In this document: in pieces, positions 5,574-31,184 of the stretch
Numbering within the stretch: position 1 is the stretch's first letter
How the letters are laid out: the number at the start of each line of letters is the position of its first letter
Source: a virus
Taxonomy: Duplodnaviria; Heunggongvirae; Uroviricota; Caudoviricetes
DNA length: 37,028 nt
Strand: one strand, 5' to 3'
IMG/VR virus record: IMGVR_UViG_2690316076_000004
The notes under the pieces: model-generated
Database searches by the model: none
What the model saw: the letters and a program-made list of their open reading frames with translations, nothing else
What the model was told of the DNA's origin: nothing
Program-made: the position numbers and the translations under genes

Positions 5574-6257
5574 TTAAACGTATTTCATGCGCGATTTAAT
5601 GTGCTTATTGATGTTTTCAAGCATCATTGCTTCGTTGCTTTCCCACGATCCTAGCGTCGAATAACGAGTAGAAATTTTATCCGATTTAACGGCAACAATT
5701 CGCTTGCTCTGTTTCTGTATGCGTTTCTCTAAGCGACGTTTTGCCACCGCCGATCCATTCCTAGCGCGTTTGGTTCGGGATTTCTTAGGCTTGTACTTCT
5801 TCATGATAAAAGTCCCTTCCTTGTTCTCTACCTTGATGAAGTTGCCGTTTTCGAGGTTACGCATCATCTTACCGCCTTTGATGGCCTTAATGTTCCCGTG
5901 GGCGTCTAAGACCTTACCGTTGGCGATTGGAACTAGCTTATTGATTTTGCCCCCATCGAAATAGTGTTTCAGATAGTCGTCCTGACTGCCGATCTTCTTA
6001 TCCTTATCCCTTGCGCCCTTGATGAAGATTTGGTGTCTCGTCCCTGATCGGTTCTTGTAGTTGGTATTACCTACAGCTTGCTGAGTCCAGCGAGTAGGTC
6101 TATCAACATTCTTGTTAATCTTCTTCTGGAGTGCTCTGGAAGCAAAGATCGCCCCTTCCCCTAGTGCCCTTTCGAATGTATCGGTTGCCTTTTCAGACCA
6201 TTGCCGTAACGCTTTCTTAGTCCTTAGAGCGTTTCGTTTATTGGTACTGGTTGCCAT
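5574..6257 (-). CDS. hypothetical basic (Lys/Arg-rich) protein
   Basis: 227-aa ORF with AGGGGG RBS; strongly basic composition. Confidence 0.55.
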   Translation of the reverse strand: MATSTNKRNALRTKKALRQWSEKATDTFERALGEGAIFASRALQKKINKNVDRPTRWTQQAVGNTNYKNRSGTRHQIFIKGARDKDKKIGSQDDYLKHYFDGGKINKLVPIANGKVLDAHGNIKAIKGGKMMRNLENGNFIKVENKEGTFIMKKYKPKKSRTKRARNGSAVAKRRLEKRIQKQSKRIVAVKSDKISTRYSTLGSWESNEAMMLENINKHIKSRMKYV

Positions 6258-6258
6258 G

Positions 6259-6429
6259 TTAGCCCCCTAATAACGAAAAGACCCCCGCCAGTGTCCTTAG
6301 CAATTGTTCATCCACGGTCATAGCCGGGAGTTCAAGCCCAAAGGACGTAAGCAGAGGTCTAATTGCTACGTTATAAGTGAGGGCGACAATCAAGAGATAA
6401 CCAAAATATTTCTTAAGTTTATTCTTCAT
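6259..6429 (-). CDS. small membrane protein (possible lysis-associated)
   Basis: ATG at 6429 with GGGGTGA RBS preferred over track start 6501 (which overlaps upstream gene); one hydrophobic helix; no Cys, so not a lipoprotein o-spanin. Confidence 0.4.
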   Translation of the reverse strand: MKNKLKKYFGYLLIVALTYNVAIRPLLTSFGLELPAMTVDEQLLRTLAGVFSLLGG

Positions 6430-6448
6430 ATATTCACCCCTTTTATTA

Positions 6449-6727
6449 TTATTTTTGTTTGAGTATGTCGAGAACTTGGTCAAATTTGGCGTCCATCGCA
6501 ACCACTTTCTTCTCTATACCGTGTAGTGTTTGTTCCATTTGGTAAACACGTTCAGCAATCTGAGTATGGTTATTCTGCATCGTCTCAAACTTCTGGTTTA
6601 ACAATGCGTCGCTGGATTCCAATTTCGACAATCTATTTTCTGTGGCTAATTGATTTCGGTGAAGTCTCCAAAGCCCACCACAAATTAAGGCGATAACACC
6701 GATACCGCCATATATAATTTCAGTCAT
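6449..6727 (-). CDS. membrane-anchored coiled-coil protein (holin- or i-spanin-like)
   Basis: N-terminal TM helix (IYGGIGVIALICGGLW) followed by coiled-coil-type region; GGGGG RBS. Confidence 0.45.
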   Translation of the reverse strand: MTEIIYGGIGVIALICGGLWRLHRNQLATENRLSKLESSDALLNQKFETMQNNHTQIAERVYQMEQTLHGIEKKVVAMDAKFDQVLDILKQK

Positions 6728-6770
6728 TACGCCCCCGATATTTTTATATAATTTAATGGCAGAATTATTT

Positions 6771-6814
6771 AGATAAAAATAATCCCGCCTAACTCAAAAG
6801 AATTAAGCGGGATT
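6771..6814 (-). terminator. intrinsic terminator downstream of J-like gene
   Basis: AATCCCGC ... GCGGGATT stem followed on minus strand by ATTTTTATCT. Confidence 0.55.
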
Positions 6815-6832
6815 AATTATTAGAATTAAATT

Positions 6833-9800
6833 TTAAGAAACAGAAATACCAGTAGCGGCTTTCTTAGTTACCATTACCGTTAGATCGCTGATATATGCAC
6901 TTGGGTTATAGTTGTTAACGCCCTTACAGTAAACTTCAAAAGTCATTGTTACTGCCCCGTGTCCGGCTGGCATGTCAATAACTCCACTGTACATACAGCC
7001 AGAAGTTGCAGTGCGATCATATAGAACACCACCATTTTTCTTAACGATTAGTCGGCAAGTATCCCAATGATCGCTACTTTCGCCACGACGAACAGACCCG
7101 TTATGATGAATCGCTGGAATCACTATTTGGCGATCGAATGGATGATCATCTTCGACCCTTACAGTGATTGCACCATCAGGCCAGTTTGGTTGGCGATGTG
7201 GGAAACTCCTACCAACCACTTTCACGAAGTCACCACGCACCTGATTAGCATCAAGCATACCCAAAATGCGGCAACTTGAATTAATCGTTACGTTGTTCAT
7301 TTCGCCGGAATCAGCCACCAAATGACCACGAATATTAGCGTGTCTAAAATGACAAGTGCCATCTTTGCCGATATACCATCCATCGTTACCATTCCAGTTA
7401 TAAGACTGGATATAGTTACCAATTTTAGCATTATCGATAGAGCCATCAATGATATGACCTGTTCCGATCTGTGCGTGTTGGATGTGAGCGCCGTTAATCT
7501 GGGCTGTGCCGATCTTAGCCGTGGTGATACTAGCATCACTAATCTGGGCTGTGCCAATTGCAGCATTACGAATCATCGCATTATCAAGATAAACTTTGTT
7601 ATCTTCGATGCCAAACGGACAAACTTCTGATCCGTCTTGTGGAGCTACCGCGATTTTATCAGCCGTAAAGATGATTCTTGTCGGTTCTGCCGGATCATTG
7701 GTTGCGCTCATATGAATACCAGCCACGCGACCATCTGCATTAACTGCCAGATTATATTTGCTGTTAATGGTTCCCTTCAAAGCATCGATTTTTACATCTG
7801 CTTCCTGATTCACACCAGCAATCTTGCCATCCATTTCTACCCGAACTTGATCAATCTTACTTGCGCTTGCTGCCTCACTGGTAGCAATTGCTTGTTTCAG
7901 GGTAGTAGCGGATGCGCTAACTTCTTTGGTGATATCGCCTTTCAGTTCAGCTTTAACCTGATCAATCTTAGTTGCGCTGGCTTGCTCACTGGTAGCAATC
8001 AGACTCTTGAGAGTATCGGCTGAGGCTTGGACCGTCTGCCCTGTCTCGGTAGTAATCTGTTTATGCATTGCATCAATCTTAGCATCGGCATTAGCGCCAG
8101 CTTGAGCAATAGCATCCGCGATGGTTTCATCTAAGCGATCTTGTAAACCAATCAGGTCTTCCAGTGCTTCTTTGTCCTGATCGTCCCAGCTAATGGTAGA
8201 TTTCATTTGCATGAAATACGGTTCAGACCAAACAGCATCATCCATACCGAAAATATCATAGTGAGCACCACGGATATAATAATCACCGTCAGCCAAATCA
8301 AAGGAAGTATGACTAACGCTATTGGTAGTCACTGCCCTTGCATCGGAGAAAGTATTATCGGTTGCATACTGGATGATTGACCCTGCATAGTCATGTTCTA
8401 CGTCATCCGCCCAGCTAACAAACGCAGTATTAAAGCCACCACGCGCACTAAAACCTTTCATCGGCTTATGTTGTGGGTTGATAGCCACTAAACGCGCTGG
8501 GGCGCTCTCTGAGTTGTTATAGCCCTTGACTGATACTTCTACCGTCAATTCACGGGAAAGGCCGTTAAACTGGTTCATATCAAGCGTATAAGTCCATGAT
8601 TCAGGATCGCGGGTACGGTACTGAATAGACTTACCAGCCTTGTTAGTTACCTTGATAATGTATGCTTCAAACAGGTCACTAAACTTGTTAGCTTCACCGT
8701 TGATCATCACATCTAATTGTTGCTGATTTTCCCATTCGATAATCAGATCATTGCCTTCGAAAGTACCAGGGGAGCTACCCTGATTTTTGATTCGAATAAC
8801 CGGAGTCGGCAATTCATAGGTAACAGTAGGATTCTGGTTAACCAGTTCCACCCATTCGGAACGAGCAATAATACCGAAAGCACAAACGCGGTAATCGTAG
8901 GAGCGATCTTTTGCCAGTGCATTGATATTGAAAATTTGCTGTGAAGTCTGTCCCAGCTTAATCCAGTTAGGTGATCCACTCACACGATAATCAATCTGGA
9001 AACCGTAGCGGTTGAAATCTTCCGGTGCATCCCATGTCAAAGTTACGTTTTTACCGTGGATGGTTTCACCAGTTGCCTTAATTCTGAAATTAGTAGGCTT
9101 CTGTACTGTCATTGAATCCGGTAAACCACTTGGTCGGTTATCTGGGTTAGCCGCATAGTTTAGGTCAGTATAAACCTGAGAATTATATTCTGTAGCGGTG
9201 ATAGTCATCATCCCAGCAATACCAGAATCAATAGAGCGATCAATTGCAGTAATACGCCAAAGTGAATTATTCAGTTTTAATTCATCATAGGTTACGCTGA
9301 TAACGTCCCATACTTCGGCGGTGAATGCGTCAGTAGTCATAAAGCTGATAACCTGAGTGATACGAGATTTATTTCGTTCTACACTCGCAAGTTTATCAAT
9401 CTGGGCTTTAGACTTAACAAAACGATATTCAATATCTTTAGCGATAATTCGACCATCTTGACGAATAGTAGCATCGTTTTCAGCATCAGCCGGATAACGT
9501 AGCATTTGCTCTGAATAGTCGATTGATGGTTCTTGATACATCGCGTTAATGGTATTGAAATAACCGTTAGTGCCACCTGTTTTCAGTGATACTTTTCCCA
9601 TCATGATATTGTCTTCATTGAAGGTATGCTTAACAATATCAGGAGCATCCAGTTTCAGCGTAATACGTCCAAAGGATTCGAACATCACCCCGCCGAAAGT
9701 CTGCATAAGGCTAGTTAAGTTCTCTTTAAAGCTGGCGTTCGGATCACATGCACCGTTGGAATGTAAATCCATCTGGCGTACTTGTTTACGCACTTTCAGG

Positions 9801-21316: not shown

Positions 21317-22150
21317 TCAGTATTCCCCGAAGTCGATCCGGTCATGGATAGAAACGGCTTCAATCTCGGCTGGTGTCGGTTTTTCTTCTGTGGAATACAC
21401 TTTCACCCATCCAGAATTACCGTCTTTCTGGACTGTGCGAACTCGTAAACGTGGTGCGCCGGAAGCGGTGCAAGTTAATTGCCATCCACCATCTTCATTA
21501 GGTTGAACGTGAATTAGTGAAGTATCAGCACTAAATGGATTAGATACGCTCGATCCCTGATAAGTTACGAAACGGTTTCCGGCTAATGCTTCGCTATCAA
21601 TCGGACCTGTGAATGGATGTACACCAGCGCCCAAACCAAAATCACCTTGACGTAAGATCCGGCCTTCGGTGGCAATACCACGGTCGAGAATCCCACCATC
21701 AGGATCTAATTTAAATTCGATGGTAGTAACTTTGTTATCGCTACCACGGGTTTTGTGTGATGTGACGTATGCATCAAAAATGACGTAGTATCCTGTGTTA
21801 GCAGCACTATAGCCAGAGTTCACAACATAGAACATACGGAAGCGTAAAGGGGTTTTATCCTCTACCGCTTTCATCAACATTGCTTGATGTTCATCATCCA
21901 GAACACGGTTTACTGTGAGTGTTGTTGATTCAAGTTTACGATAGCCAGCCAACTTACCAGTAACATCATGGTTATATTCTTCTAACGTCTGGATCTCTGT
22001 GGATTCGGTGATCGTAGGGAATGCTGCGATGTTCTCGATAGGACTAAATGCAGGATCGAAAAAGTCCGGCTGGTTATCCACCATAGTAGACACGGAGACT
22101 TCAACATGCGACCCCGTGAAAATGTCTAAGTTATCTTGTGTAATATTCAT
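21317..22150 (-). CDS. hypothetical virion protein (possible fibre-associated/collar protein)
   Basis: 277 aa; shares KPTPAEI motif with the fibre; located between U-like and fibre genes; function not recognisable. Confidence 0.45.
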   Translation of the reverse strand: MNITQDNLDIFTGSHVEVSVSTMVDNQPDFFDPAFSPIENIAAFPTITESTEIQTLEEYNHDVTGKLAGYRKLESTTLTVNRVLDDEHQAMLMKAVEDKTPLRFRMFYVVNSGYSAANTGYYVIFDAYVTSHKTRGSDNKVTTIEFKLDPDGGILDRGIATEGRILRQGDFGLGAGVHPFTGPIDSEALAGNRFVTYQGSSVSNPFSADTSLIHVQPNEDGGWQLTCTASGAPRLRVRTVQKDGNSGWVKVYSTEEKPTPAEIEAVSIHDRIDFGEY

Positions 22151-22159
22151 TATTACCCC

Positions 22160-22582
22160 TTAAAAACGCGCTACATAAGAAAATTTAAGGCTAAGTGTCC
22201 CAACGATACCCCCATCACTAGAATCATCGTCATAATCGGTATTAGAGGCTACTGGAGTGATATCTGAAATAGAGAAGCCCAAATCTTTAAAACGTGGGTT
22301 ATCCGGCTGAATCTGGATTATCTGGCAAATACCCTCATGAATTTTGGTTTCATGATTCTGAGAATACAACTGCATTTCGATAACGCATTCAGCTTGCATT
22401 GCATTACCACCACGGACCCTAGTGTAAGTCTCATTCATTCCAGTAATCCAACAAACCACGTCATCACTAAAGCCTTGCTGAGTTTGTTCTACGTTTAAAG
22501 CCAGACCTAAATCTTGTTCGATAATATCCTGCAAGGCGCGTTTGATTTTCAGTCTAGGCATATTATTAACGGTAGCGAGCAT
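22160..22582 (-). CDS. tail terminator protein, lambda U-like (tentative)
   Basis: ATG at 22582 with AGGGGG RBS preferred (track start 22663 overlaps upstream gene by ~100 nt); C-terminal acidic DYDDDSSDGG stretch resembles lambda U pattern. Confidence 0.45.
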   Translation of the reverse strand: MLATVNNMPRLKIKRALQDIIEQDLGLALNVEQTQQGFSDDVVCWITGMNETYTRVRGGNAMQAECVIEMQLYSQNHETKIHEGICQIIQIQPDNPRFKDLGFSISDITPVASNTDYDDDSSDGGIVGTLSLKFSYVARF

Positions 22583-22856
22583 GTGTACCCCCTGCACGAG
22601 CAATAAAGCAATCAGAAGTATTATCACCATTGCGCTTAACGTATTGAACTTTGAAGCGTTCACCGTCTACAATGACAACATCACCCTGATTTAAGTCTCC
22701 CTCACGACAAAATAGAAATTCTGATTCTGTAATTACCCCTTGTTCGTCGGTAGTAGTAATTTCATGATAAGCACGAATTGATTTACCACCTTCCACCGAA
22801 AATACAGGAGCACTCTTAAACATTCTTGATAATTGTGATTCTGATAATTTGAACAT
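22566..22856 (-). CDS. head-tail joining protein, lambda FII-like
   Basis: QGDVVIVDGERFKVQYVKRNGDNTSDCF resembles remembered FII C-terminal pattern; first gene after capsid; AAGGGGG RBS. Confidence 0.5.
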   Translation of the reverse strand: MFKLSESQLSRMFKSAPVFSVEGGKSIRAYHEITTTDEQGVITESEFLFCREGDLNQGDVVIVDGERFKVQYVKRNGDNTSDCFIARAGGTHARYR

Positions 22857-22882: not shown

Positions 22883-22913
22883 ATACAAAAAAGCCCCACC
22901 GTTAGGCAGGGCT
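22883..22913 (-). terminator. intrinsic terminator downstream of capsid gene
   Basis: minus-strand AGCCCUGCC-UAAC-GGUGGGGCU followed by UUUUUUGU. Confidence 0.65.
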
Positions 22914-23050
22914 AATTATTATTTTGCTTTAGTCTTACGTTCTTTTTTAACTGTGGCTTTCGCCGTAACCTCTTGAACTTCTTCTTCCTGAGATGGAATC
23001 AGATTTTCTTCCCCCAAATCGGGGGAAGGTTCAGAAGGTTCTACGTTAGT

Positions 23051-25054
23051 TCATTCAGAGACGTGAAGAACTTTCAGAGCTTCCGGCTGGGTAACTACAT
23101 AATCCAGATCTACCCAGATACGCGGAACGATCGCGCCCTGTGCTCTGTAGGTTGAATCGTCCAGATCTAGCTCAAGACCGCCCCATTCACCGATGGTAAT
23201 AGCGGAGAAGTCACCCAGAACGATGTGGTCTACCGGAATAACACCAGAAGTAACTACTTCGTAACCAGCCAGTTTACCGTTTTCGATGATATAACCGGAA
23301 ACGCCGTTATCTTTCAGGGTAGATTCCAGTTCAGCAGCAGTTGCACCGCTCATCGCAAACTTGATCGCCTGAGCAGGAACGCCAGCGTCGGTCAGTTTAG
23401 CGATTTCTTTCAGGAAGTCTTTGTAAGAGAAAGCAGCTTTCTTCTCAACACGGCTTGCATCAACCAGTTGTTTAATCACACCAGCCGGACCACGAGCATT
23501 ATCTTTATCAGACAGAATCAGTTGTTCCAGTTTGATGCGAACAGCCTGGTTAATGTGATCAGTGATCAGGGTAGCGATGCCCGGAACGGTTTTCAGAGAC
23601 TGACGGCTGATCGGGTTGCCACCAGCAAAAGTTTTCGGAGCCATTTTCACGTTTGCAAATTCTGCTTTACCTTCCGGTGCAGCACCGTTTTCATCAACGA
23701 AGCCGAAAGATTCAACGCTGGAAGCGGTCATTTTAGGAATAGCGGTCGGCGAAGTCAGACCAGACAGGACTTTCACACCAAGACGACCCAGAACGGATTC
23801 CGGTAACAGCATCGCTACATAGGAATCATTCAGCAGTTTTTCGTCGGTTACAGCTTCCAGAGTAGTTTTGGTGTTACCATCAGCAGCAGCACGCATAGCA
23901 GCAGTCGGAACGAATACAGAGCCACCACGAGCAGCACGACCACGCTGCATTGCAGCACCAGCAGCCATAGCAGAAAACTCGGCTTCGTTAGCACCCAGAG
24001 CAGCACCATCTACCAGAGAGCGAATTACGTTGTTCAGGTCAAAAGTTTTTTCCATTTTAGAGTCCTTAATTTGTTCGTTATTACGTTGAGCATTGGTAAT
24101 GTTATTTAGTGCCTTAGTGCGGAATGCTTCCGGCGTCATTTCTTTATTTGCCAATGCGCGTTTCAATTCTTCGTCGTCAATATTTAGTTCCCGCGCGATC
24201 TCGCGGATTTCTAATTCGTCTTCTTCGGAACGTTCAGCCACTTCCTCGATTTCTTCTTCTTCAACCGGAGCAGCTTCACGTTCTTCTTTTATTTCTTCTG
24301 TTTCCCGAACAGTTGAACTATCATCATCAACACTTTCAGGATGTTCAGCGTCTTTTCCGTCTTCGAGATTTTCATTTTCTTCATTCTCTTCAGCTTGGCG
24401 CTCTTGAGTTTCTTCAACTTCCGGTTCTTTATTTTCTTCTACCGGAGTTTCTTCAACCTGAGCGACTTCTTTTTCTTCGTCTTTAACTTGTTCGATTTGT
24501 TCTTTAGTCATATCGCGTTTAGCCTCCAAATTAACTGTGATAGTATTTAGAGAGCGATTTAAACCGACCGAATCGTCAGCAGGAACTGTCACAAATGAAA
24601 TTTCAAAGGGTGCCCACTTAGTAACAATCAATTGTCCTTTAGCGTAATCGATGTGATACTCTTTAATGTCATAGCCGACCGATATTTTTTCCATCGTACC
24701 TTCAATGACTTTATTACGAATATCATTAGCCAAAGTCCCATGCTTAGAGAATTTAACCAGAGCACGGCCTACGTTATCCGCATCGATTCGAGCGTTACAG
24801 ACAACACCAATGTGATTATCGAAATTATGATTGAACAGCAACGGAGCGTTATTATTCAGGCGAGACAGATCAACCGCTTCCGGTGTATGTACCAGAATTT
24901 CATCTAATACCACCATTTCTTGATTTTGCTCATCCCAGAATTGGCGCTGGTAAGGCTGGGTACTGGAGAAAGCAATTTCAAATTCGTATTGATCGTTATG
25001 CCCTTCGTTAATAACTCCACCGTAACCGTTAAGATCGCGGCGAAATTTAAGCAT
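23051..25054 (-). CDS. fused prohead protease - scaffold-like acidic linker - HK97-fold major capsid protein
   Basis: N-terminal ~200 aa with prohead-protease-like His/Ser motifs, central Glu-rich coiled region, C-terminal ~330 aa capsid-like; AAAGGTGA RBS. Confidence 0.8.
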   Translation of the reverse strand: MLKFRRDLNGYGGVINEGHNDQYEFEIAFSSTQPYQRQFWDEQNQEMVVLDEILVHTPEAVDLSRLNNNAPLLFNHNFDNHIGVVCNARIDADNVGRALVKFSKHGTLANDIRNKVIEGTMEKISVGYDIKEYHIDYAKGQLIVTKWAPFEISFVTVPADDSVGLNRSLNTITVNLEAKRDMTKEQIEQVKDEEKEVAQVEETPVEENKEPEVEETQERQAEENEENENLEDGKDAEHPESVDDDSSTVRETEEIKEEREAAPVEEEEIEEVAERSEEDELEIREIARELNIDDEELKRALANKEMTPEAFRTKALNNITNAQRNNEQIKDSKMEKTFDLNNVIRSLVDGAALGANEAEFSAMAAGAAMQRGRAARGGSVFVPTAAMRAAADGNTKTTLEAVTDEKLLNDSYVAMLLPESVLGRLGVKVLSGLTSPTAIPKMTASSVESFGFVDENGAAPEGKAEFANVKMAPKTFAGGNPISRQSLKTVPGIATLITDHINQAVRIKLEQLILSDKDNARGPAGVIKQLVDASRVEKKAAFSYKDFLKEIAKLTDAGVPAQAIKFAMSGATAAELESTLKDNGVSGYIIENGKLAGYEVVTSGVIPVDHIVLGDFSAITIGEWGGLELDLDDSTYRAQGAIVPRIWVDLDYVVTQPEALKVLHVSE

Positions 25055-30350: not shown

Positions 30351-31184
30351 TCAGATCCCAAAATCAACAAGGGAAATTACGTTACCTGATTCACGAATCT
30401 GTTTAGCAGCTTTGTTTTGAATCAGAATAGTGTTATTTGGCTGCGGCAGTTTAAGAGTTGCTTTCTGTTCTTCTTCCAAAACGCCCAATTCAACCAGCAC
30501 CGGAAGAACATCAACAGTAAACTCAAGCTGGTAATGAGCATTCATGCGGCAGAAAGACAGAGAAGAGTCATTAGCAACATACCCACACGGCTTGTTATTT
30601 TCATCATAGACGCGCTCAATGTAGCCAGCAGTACGTAAGGCCGTCAGTGCTTGTTTAACCTTCGTAGCGCCCTTTTTAGCGCCTAACAGACGTGTCATAG
30701 AATGGCTATCTACGGATTTGCGAATGTGTAGCTCAATCAGTTTTTTATTTTTGCGTTTTTCATCTAATGCCAGTTCGATCCAGTCGGTTTCTTCAAAGTC
30801 CGCATACGGGTTAACAGGAGTATTATTGGCGGTTTTCAGTTTCTCTTCCAGATAATTCCAACGGTCAACCAGTTGGCGAGTAAATTCCGGTACGTTTTGA
30901 GCAATCAAGACAATCGAATCTAAGCGACCTTGCTCACCCTCAAACACATAATCTTTAACAGTAACAGCAAACCCTAAGTTATTGATTTTCTCGAAATTCT
31001 GCGTTGCAGGTTTTCGGATAACTTGGCGTTCAACCAGTCGGTTCATAGAAGTTTCAAGGTTTGAAAAACGAACTCCAATAAGGTCGGCAATTTCACGAAG
31101 AGTCATTTTTGCAACTTCGTTATCAACAACCAGAGACACGGAAGCAGTTTTAACAGCAGTATTCATAGTAGTAACAGTATTCAT
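30351..31184 (-). CDS. Rha/ORF6N-type phage regulatory protein (antirepressor-like)
   Basis: N-terminal MTLREIADLIGVRFSNLETSMNRL resembles Rha/ORF6N DNA-binding pattern; family call from memory. Confidence 0.5.
   Translation of the reverse strand: MNTVTTMNTAVKTASVSLVVDNEVAKMTLREIADLIGVRFSNLETSMNRLVERQVIRKPATQNFEKINNLGFAVTVKDYVFEGEQGRLDSIVLIAQNVPEFTRQLVDRWNYLEEKLKTANNTPVNPYADFEETDWIELALDEKRKNKKLIELHIRKSVDSHSMTRLLGAKKGATKVKQALTALRTAGYIERVYDENNKPCGYVANDSSLSFCRMNAHYQLEFTVDVLPVLVELGVLEEEQKATLKLPQPNNTILIQNKAAKQIRESGNVISLVDFGI

Follow-up and report, generated by a model that had tools for sequence, protein, structure and literature searches.

What becomes of a ribosome that reaches the end of the capsid gene of a tailed phage when the stop codon is a weak UGA and the same frame stays open behind it? 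The question is raised by a viral stretch of 37,028 nucleotides (nt) from the class Caudoviricetes (IMG/VR record IMGVR_UViG_2690316076_000004), the whole of which is called the window below. It carries an Escherichia coli prophage of ~36 kb, a tailed double-stranded DNA (dsDNA) phage with an HK97-fold capsid, whose capsid gene ends in TGA and is followed in frame by 43 sense codons running up to an intrinsic terminator. Here we report a comparative analysis of this extension in the window, in 66 related prophage sequences, and in more distant capsid genes. With a probability of roughly 0.6, we conclude from the sequence comparison that the extension is translated by UGA read-through and maintained by selection. 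The observed basis for this reading consists of the stop codon context, the conserved open frame, extension lengths that stay in phase, a retained charge pattern, and the lack of a conserved start codon.

Stop codon, open frame and terminator at the 3' end of the capsid gene

The capsid gene lies on the minus strand, as do all features described in this section, and is a single 667-codon open reading frame (ORF) in the ORF list (25054..23051; sense codons 23054..25054). It stops at the TGA at 23051..23053, the next base being A (23050) and the next codon ACT. The in-frame extension at 22922..23050 comprises 43 codons and reads TNVEPSEPSPDLGEENLIPSQEEEVQEVTAKATVKKERKTKAK. It is closed by a tandem stop, TAA TAA, at 22916..22921, of which the second TAA occupies 22918-22916. 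The stem of the intrinsic terminator (22886..22913) starts 2 nt past this second TAA; the stem-loop, with a 9-bp stem and a 4-nt loop, spans 22913-22892, and the T-tract spans 22891-22886. Inside the extension, an RNA hairpin at 23008..23028, composed of an 8-bp stem (CUUCCCCC/GGGGGAAG) and a 5-nt GAUUU loop, begins 22 nt after the TGA. A first-pass annotation of this DNA, made from its letters alone, had noticed that the capsid frame stays open from the TGA (23053-23051) to the TAA at 22921-22919. The peptide it gave was exactly right, and both the terminator beside the TAA and the hairpin, which it had placed ~24 nt from the TGA, are real. Its count of 46 codons needs correction, the actual number being 43 sense codons, or 45 when the TGA and the first TAA are included.

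The capsid TGA is anomalous, because 35 of the 38 genes in the window stop at TAA while the major capsid protein (MCP) domain of the capsid gene has the highest frequency of optimal codons (Fop) in the window. The domain reaches 0.81, against 0.51-0.59 in the 5' half of the capsid ORF and in every other gene. UAA is the favoured stop of highly expressed genes, and UGA-A is particularly open to misreading by tRNA-Trp in E. coli (PMC5289835). The only two remaining TGA-ending genes of the window (30351-31184 and 21317-22150, both minus) have TGA-T, and the first of them is trailed by 40 open in-frame codons.

Taken as a single sequence, the open frame is no more than chance would provide. The probability of roughly 10% that had been attached to it earlier holds up, with 10.2% of dinucleotide-preserving shuffles of the 129 nt keeping frame 0 open, and stretches of 40-42 open codons also follow the stops of two other genes in the window. 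It is only through the comparison with relatives that the extension exceeds chance.

Conservation of the open frame among related prophages

The capsid module was detected in 57 of 5,426 complete E. coli genomes, as well as in IMG/VR contigs and gut metagenome contigs. It is absent from species representatives, since scans of one-genome-per-species contigs with the capsid profile and with the terminator motif both returned no match. The resulting sample comprises 66 related prophage sequences with 35 distinct extension haplotypes, distributed over two capsid lineages with 40% protein identity. Because the distance from one in-frame stop to the next is trivially a multiple of three, we avoided this circularity by anchoring each sequence on the conserved terminator motif and then walking upstream in frame.

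In all 66 sequences, the first in-frame stop met upstream of the terminator is the capsid TGA-A. Frame 0 is open in 35 of 35 haplotypes up to the double stop directly before the terminator, and each of the 28 haplotypes tested has stops in both frame +1 and frame +2. The closing stops are TAATAA in 57 sequences, TGATAA in seven, and TAATAATAA in two. The check that had been proposed at the outset, conservation of the extension frame in related phages, thus finds the frame open and the TGA-A present throughout the sample. The second capsid lineage, with a 40% identical protein ending in LTVVQKKVD, has the same TGA-A and the same extension. Stop type and extension go together, the 66 carriers all having TGA-A and the 28 more distant relatives that lack the extension all having TAA, and this association speaks for read-through.

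Length variation points in the same direction. The extension occurs in seven length classes (27, 28, 33, 42, 43, 44, and 45 codons), all in phase, and at least six indel events (one of 27 nt, one of 48 nt, and four of 3 nt) are each phase-preserving. The adjoining terminator loop region, 23 nt in the window, varies from 22 to 25 nt through 1- and 2-nt indels, which implies at least four out-of-phase events. The difference between in-phase and out-of-phase indels gives a one-sided Fisher p of ~0.005, a value that rests on our own count of indel events. No stop codon has come out of the 64 or more substitution events in the extension; at a stop chance of ~0.04 per event, the probability of this outcome is ~0.07.

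The interval of the extension carries no annotation in any of the 14 RefSeq genomes fetched. A candidate ORF on the opposite strand (22973..23155, plus) was rejected, being interrupted in 2 of 28 haplotypes.

Charge pattern of the extension peptide

The predicted peptide has two parts, an acidic, Pro-rich linker with a net charge of -9 and a basic tail, TAKATVKKERKTKAK, with a charge of +6. This pattern of charge is kept among variants: the Glu/Pro-rich linker ranges from -4 to -9, it is followed by an AKAT(A/V)K block, and the tail behind it remains at +5 to +6. It holds over four different tail sequences, KKERKTKAK (in the window), KKQRKTKE, KRGRKPKE, and KKVGRPPKAK, and the short form of the extension likewise keeps it despite a linker that is unrelated in sequence. 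The KKVGRPPKAK tail, present in many relatives, scores 13.2-14.2 bits (E 0.04-0.09) with the AT_hook model (PF02178), below the Pfam cut-off of 17.4 bits; like the AT-hook, it has a GRP core flanked by basic residues. In the same search, the KKERKTKAK tail of the window and the KKQRKTKE tail were unmatched.

Predicted route of translation and its product

Frameshifting is not involved, since the window contains no slippery site before the capsid stop (...CAC GTC TCT GAA TGA ACT) and the extension lies in the zero frame. A tRNA scan of the window returned no tRNA genes, hence no phage-encoded suppressor. Given that independent initiation is unlikely (see below), that there is neither a slippery site nor a tRNA, and that the hairpins are unlike a selenocysteine insertion sequence (SECIS), near-cognate decoding of the UGA by tRNA-Trp is the route left over. 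Reporters in E. coli K-12 gave UGA read-through of ~2% at 37 °C and ~4% at 25 °C (PMC10570021).

From these data we infer that read-through occurs, at what rate, and how the resulting tails are incorporated, located, and used, as follows. Most ribosomes would stop at the weak UGA-A and yield the normal capsid protein, while a small fraction, probably on the order of 1-5%, would translate the UGA through tRNA-Trp and read a further 43 codons up to the strong tandem stop, UAA UAA. The product would be a minor capsid subunit with a probably disordered tail consisting of the acidic Pro-rich linker and the Lys/Arg-rich end. With Trp at the UGA, the predicted added mass is ~4.9 kDa, the predicted junction is ...VLHVSE-W-TNVEPSEPSPDLGEENLIPSQEEEVQEVTAK, and the predicted tryptic peptide of the read-through product is VLHVSEWTNVEPSEPSPDLGEENLIPSQEEEVQEVTAK. 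The nearest solved structure to the MCP is that of roseophage R4C (8GTA_A, E 1.5e-24), a phage with a T=7 head of 415 copies and a genome of similar size to the prophage described here. Should the present head also be T=7 with ~415 subunits, read-through of 1-5% would place roughly 4-20 tails on each virion. In T7, the display of 10B presents its C-terminal extension on the capsid surface. The C-terminus of the P22 coat protein is externalised (PMC13433545). With T7 gp10B and the P22 coat protein as a guide, the outer surface of the capsid is the probable location of the tails, and our guess at their role is electrostatic adhesion to polyanions or nucleic acid.

The earlier suggestion that low-level read-through of the TGA could give a C-terminally extended capsid subunit is therefore supported by the comparative evidence of the TGA-A, the open frame, and the in-phase lengths. 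Several observations count against UGA read-through under selection. The extension is the most variable segment of the locus, with a nucleotide diversity (pi) of 0.19, compared with 0.12 in the capsid gene and 0.03 in the terminator region, the most conserved segment. The ratio of nonsynonymous to synonymous polymorphism (pN/pS) is 0.62-0.65 in the extension versus 0.25 in the capsid domain, the latter obtained from a protein-guided alignment. Variable sites are distributed over the three codon positions as 15/19/17 in the extension, with no third-position excess, versus 66/42/144 in the capsid. The hairpin of the window, at 22 nt from the stop, is not at the canonical distance for a stimulator. 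Release factor 2 (RF2) of wild E. coli terminates at UGA better than the K-12 allele, so read-through might run at less than 1%. The more distant relatives, 28 in number (~29-56% identity) and drawn from Salmonella and other contigs, from a second E. coli prophage type, and from the record of phage DCP80, all have a TAA stop and no extension, which shows that the extension is dispensable for the capsid fold. Every carrier belongs to a group of close, recombining E. coli-type prophages; the events counted above are therefore only partly independent, and the TGA may have arisen just once. Lastly, a search of the extension peptide against 5.8 billion predicted proteins produced no candidate, and with it neither a relative in which a sense codon replaces the TGA nor a called small ORF. 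The conserved frame sustains the idea of read-through, but the peptide sequence is weakly constrained and, in the window, the hairpin lies too far away to act as a classical stimulator.

Tails and post-stop hairpins in sister capsid lineages

Capsids 42-44% identical to that of the window exhibit three arrangements at their C-terminus. In the constitutive arrangement, the capsid protein itself ends in a short tail (TPAEVKAAQKASA, TPAEAPAEAKAGK, EAEAGETRKAK, or APAGRSK). In an arrangement resembling frameshifting (L054, L057, L086, L094, and DCP80), a TAA follows ...EKKTGA and the -1 frame is open for 20-31 codons beyond it; this -1-frame ORF begins just upstream of the stop, and its predicted product is a basic tail such as DGSLTDTGAQAAPVRKPRALKVTK. 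Each of the five sequences contains an A_AAR motif a few codons ahead of the stop, and a dnaX-type A_AAA_AAG is present in three sequences (L057, L086, and L087). The -1-frame regions were located at 2470-2580 in L057, 1620-1760 in L094, and 2160-2330 in L112 (the DCP80 record), and also in L054, L086, and L087. These ORFs look like T7-10B-style -1 frameshifting that would yield the same type of tail. The sample of the frameshift type amounts to five distinct sequences and is treated as a lead; a pattern search of IMG/VR for further sisters of this type returned only the two already known. Together with the window, these sequences suggest that C-terminal tails rich in Lys, Ala, and Pro recur in the capsid family as an accessory, attached constitutively, by -1 frameshifting, or by read-through.

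In four further sequences (L051, L056, L084, and L096), a (GCAAAA/GCGAAA)n repeat was found after the capsid TAA, where the -1 frame reads (AK)n, as in SLRKAKAKAKAKAETAE. The copy number of this hexanucleotide repeat varies between relatives, and L056 has A_AAA_AAA before the stop.

The hairpins in the extension are conserved within each form. Among the long-form variants, the stem is identical in 17 of 17 distinct sequences. Short-form relatives have a different hairpin of 11-12 bp with a GAAA loop (for example L011:1413-1438), located 10 nt past the TGA and with a z-score of -4.7, and compensatory changes occur in it (L025 and L045). A scan against Rfam 15 found no family at threshold, the best matches reaching 13-19 bits against thresholds of 37-137 and being driven by the terminator. 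A stable hairpin stands soon after the capsid stop in every lineage, with unrelated sequences, and it lies 6-8 nt past the TAA in L057, L054, L086, L094, and L112; the stems are CAGGAGCA/UGCUCCUG, CAGGAGAA/UUCUCCUG, GGUCUU/AAGACC, GGGGUU/GACCCC, and GGAGAGA/UCUCUCC. These post-stop hairpins may serve as a recoding stimulator or as a stabiliser of the mRNA. The hairpin may be part of the recoding signal above all in the short form, where it is 10 nt past the UGA. A more elaborate scheme, which is doubtful as a whole, would have the conserved hairpin raise UGA-A read-through to a programmed level, at which a fixed share of the HK97-fold subunits receives a zwitterionic tail for adhesion or stability, made of the acidic linker and a basic segment that resembles an AT-hook in many relatives, with the capsid family interchanging read-through, -1 frameshifting, and constitutive tails.

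Alternative explanations

The extension might be a decaying remnant, namely a longer capsid tail that was cut by a nonsense TGA, leaving the downstream codons as an unbroken, untranslated fossil. We regard this as unlikely, although short constitutive tails do occur in related capsids (TPAEAPAEAKAGK, EAEAGETRKAK, and APAGRSK), the near-neutral pN/pS of the peptide is what a fossil would have, and the carriers are all close relatives. Since the extension is more diverged than the capsid gene (pi of 0.19 over 35 haplotypes against 0.12), there has been ample time for decay. Nevertheless, none of the 66 sequences has acquired a stop or an out-of-phase indel, while the neighbouring 23-nt loop has several of the latter. 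In addition, the TGA-A has never turned into the genome-preferred TAA, and the tail charge of +5/+6 has been retained over the four tail sequences.

Distinctly less probable are two explanations in which the peptide has no role. In the first, the act of translation matters: ribosomes that have read through would reach the TAA TAA and mask the 5' arm of the terminator, allowing the polymerase to enter the tail genes. Such antitermination would account for a frame that is always open and a TGA-A that never varies, for an extension stop fixed at 2-5 nt from the terminator stem, and for the weak amino acid constraint. Its effect would be small, being confined to those transcripts, a few percent, on which the leading ribosome reads through, and a weaker terminator would do the same; the acidic-then-basic charge pattern is left unexplained. 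Moreover, the tail ORFs of sister lineages end 3-27 nt from their terminators, so the adjacency is not general.

In the second explanation, which we rate equally low, the region is an RNA-level element, a structured 3' untranslated region (3' UTR) with a role in capsid mRNA stability or as the source of a 3'-UTR-derived small RNA (sRNA), and the frame is incidental. A stable hairpin is indeed kept in every variant, the short forms have compensatory changes, unrelated hairpins stand 6-8 nt past the stop in sister lineages, and weak sub-threshold Rfam matches to Hfq-binding sRNAs cover the terminator. However, no Rfam family reached its threshold and the sequence outside the hairpin is hypervariable. 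An RNA element also offers no reason for indels that keep phase, for a frame 0 that is open while +1 and +2 are closed, or for the invariant TGA-A. A role of the hairpin is compatible with the read-through explanation and may be part of it.

Lower still stands an independent small gene, with a 32-residue peptide (22919..23017) made from an in-frame TTG, possibly by re-initiation after the TGA. Of the 35 haplotypes, 31 have this TTG, which is codon 12 of the extension in the long forms and codon 5 in the short ones, and in-phase indels would also be expected of a separate gene. Yet the TTG has been lost in four separate haplotype groups with the frame still open, becoming TCG twice, CTG, and TTA; the last two are synonymous Leu codons, so the TTG behaves like a sense codon inside a longer frame. 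The extension contains no ATG, and the TTG lacks a Shine-Dalgarno sequence and sits inside the stable hairpin. No gene is called there in the 14 RefSeq genomes, nor was such a protein found among the 5.8 billion predicted ones.

It is very improbable that the extension is an ordinary 3' spacer that happens to lack stops: the single-sequence probability of 0.10 and the two other window genes with 40-42 open codons would allow it, and the combined comparative evidence argues otherwise. Selenocysteine insertion, suggested by a UGA followed by a hairpin that could act as SECIS, can practically be discarded, given a hairpin 22 nt from the UGA in the window versus ~11 nt for a bacterial SECIS, loops (GAUUU in the long and GAAA in the short form) that are unrelated and without bacterial SECIS features, no Rfam match, and no plausible use of selenocysteine in a capsid protein.

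The capsid gene and its surroundings

The capsid ORF joins an HK97-type prohead protease, an acidic scaffold-like linker, and the MCP in one chain. Its PHROGs matches are phrog_617, 'major head protein' (3.9e-91), and phrog_4523, 'major head and protease protein', and the RefSeq product name in relatives is 'phage major capsid protein'. The gene neighbourhood is that of a siphovirus-like prophage late operon with terminase, portal, capsid, major tail protein, tape measure, and tail fibre genes. The MCP domain occupies 334 codons at 23054..24055 (minus) and has a very strong E. coli codon optimisation. Within the capsid ORF, Fop steps from 0.59 to 0.81 precisely where the protease/scaffold part meets the capsid part (24055-24075, minus). 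An in-frame internal ATG is present at 24055 (minus), with AAGGA 7 nt upstream, and some databases hold capsid products of ~335 residues (P0009). The capsid domain alone may be made from this internal start, at a level far above that of the full fusion.

Among cultured phages, the only DNA match was a stretch of 69% identity in the record of Escherichia phage DCP80, and at the protein level DCP80 was found at 40% identity, all other matches being at most 29%. The DCP80 record (PQ671644.1, L112) is 141 kb long and classed in Tevenvirinae; the protease-capsid fusion at 5789-7789 is of the siphovirus-prophage type, and its neighbours resemble those in the window. The record may be a chimeric assembly or mislabelled. 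One E. coli genome (NZ_OW848980.1; H9/H23) has an IS903B insertion in the capsid region. A 167-residue, GTG-started ORF at 22160-22663 (minus) overlaps the upstream gene of 96 residues by ~100 nt in the mechanical ORF list. Its true start probably lies further downstream, because the product in RefSeq relatives is 140 residues long (423 nt) with an overlap of just 17 nt.

Significance and relation to known recoding systems

To our knowledge, minor C-terminally extended capsid subunits produced by recoding in tailed phages are known only through frameshifting (T7, T3, A2, and Listeria phages), and the only phage capsids known to make use of stop-codon read-through are those of the RNA phage Qbeta and its relatives. 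We found no report of stop-codon read-through in the capsid gene of a tailed dsDNA phage in the searchable literature. If the present reading is correct, a UGA-A read-through tail on an HK97-fold capsid would be a third route. With the frameshift-type and constitutive sisters, it would form a natural series for asking why phages decorate a few subunits per head. UGA read-through in E. coli shifts with temperature, growth state, and cyclic AMP (cAMP) (PMC10570021), so the tail load could differ among virions from different host states. Annotation pipelines miss the extension, which is unannotated in all the RefSeq genomes fetched, and it would mark a ready-made, tolerated, low-copy display site on the capsid of a temperate coliphage.

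Two groups of phages invite direct comparison. In T7 and T3 (10A/10B), Lactobacillus phage A2, and Listeria phages A118, A500, and PSA, a minor extended form of the capsid protein is made by frameshifting (PMC5009743). As in the window, major and minor capsid forms come from one gene, with the recoding near its 3' end upstream of a terminator. Unlike in the window, where the extension is in frame behind the stop, these phages shift by -1 or +1 at slippery sites into an extension in another frame. The Qbeta (Qubevirus) protein A1 is a minor component of the capsid (PMC8880383). Its leaky coat UGA is followed by ACU, giving the same tetranucleotide and the same next codon as in the window; a small fraction of ribosomes (5% in the annotation of the record) inserts an amino acid and goes on in frame, and the A1 extension likewise opens with a proline-rich linker. 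Qbeta differs in being a 4.2-kb single-stranded RNA phage with an unrelated coat fold, and its extension is a folded one of 196 residues that is needed for infectivity, whereas those of the window and its relatives have 27-45 residues, are apparently disordered and weakly constrained, and are absent from distant relatives.

A third parallel comes from the luteovirids, in which the coat protein stop is rarely read through to give a coat protein-read-through domain fusion (CP-RTD) whose extension opens with a proline-rich tract encoded by a C-rich repeat, and the extended subunits protrude. These are plant RNA viruses that use a UAG stop, long-range RNA elements, and a large folded domain. By analogy, the extension described here would resemble Qbeta A1 in its mechanism and T7 gp10B in its outcome, and it belongs to neither family by descent.

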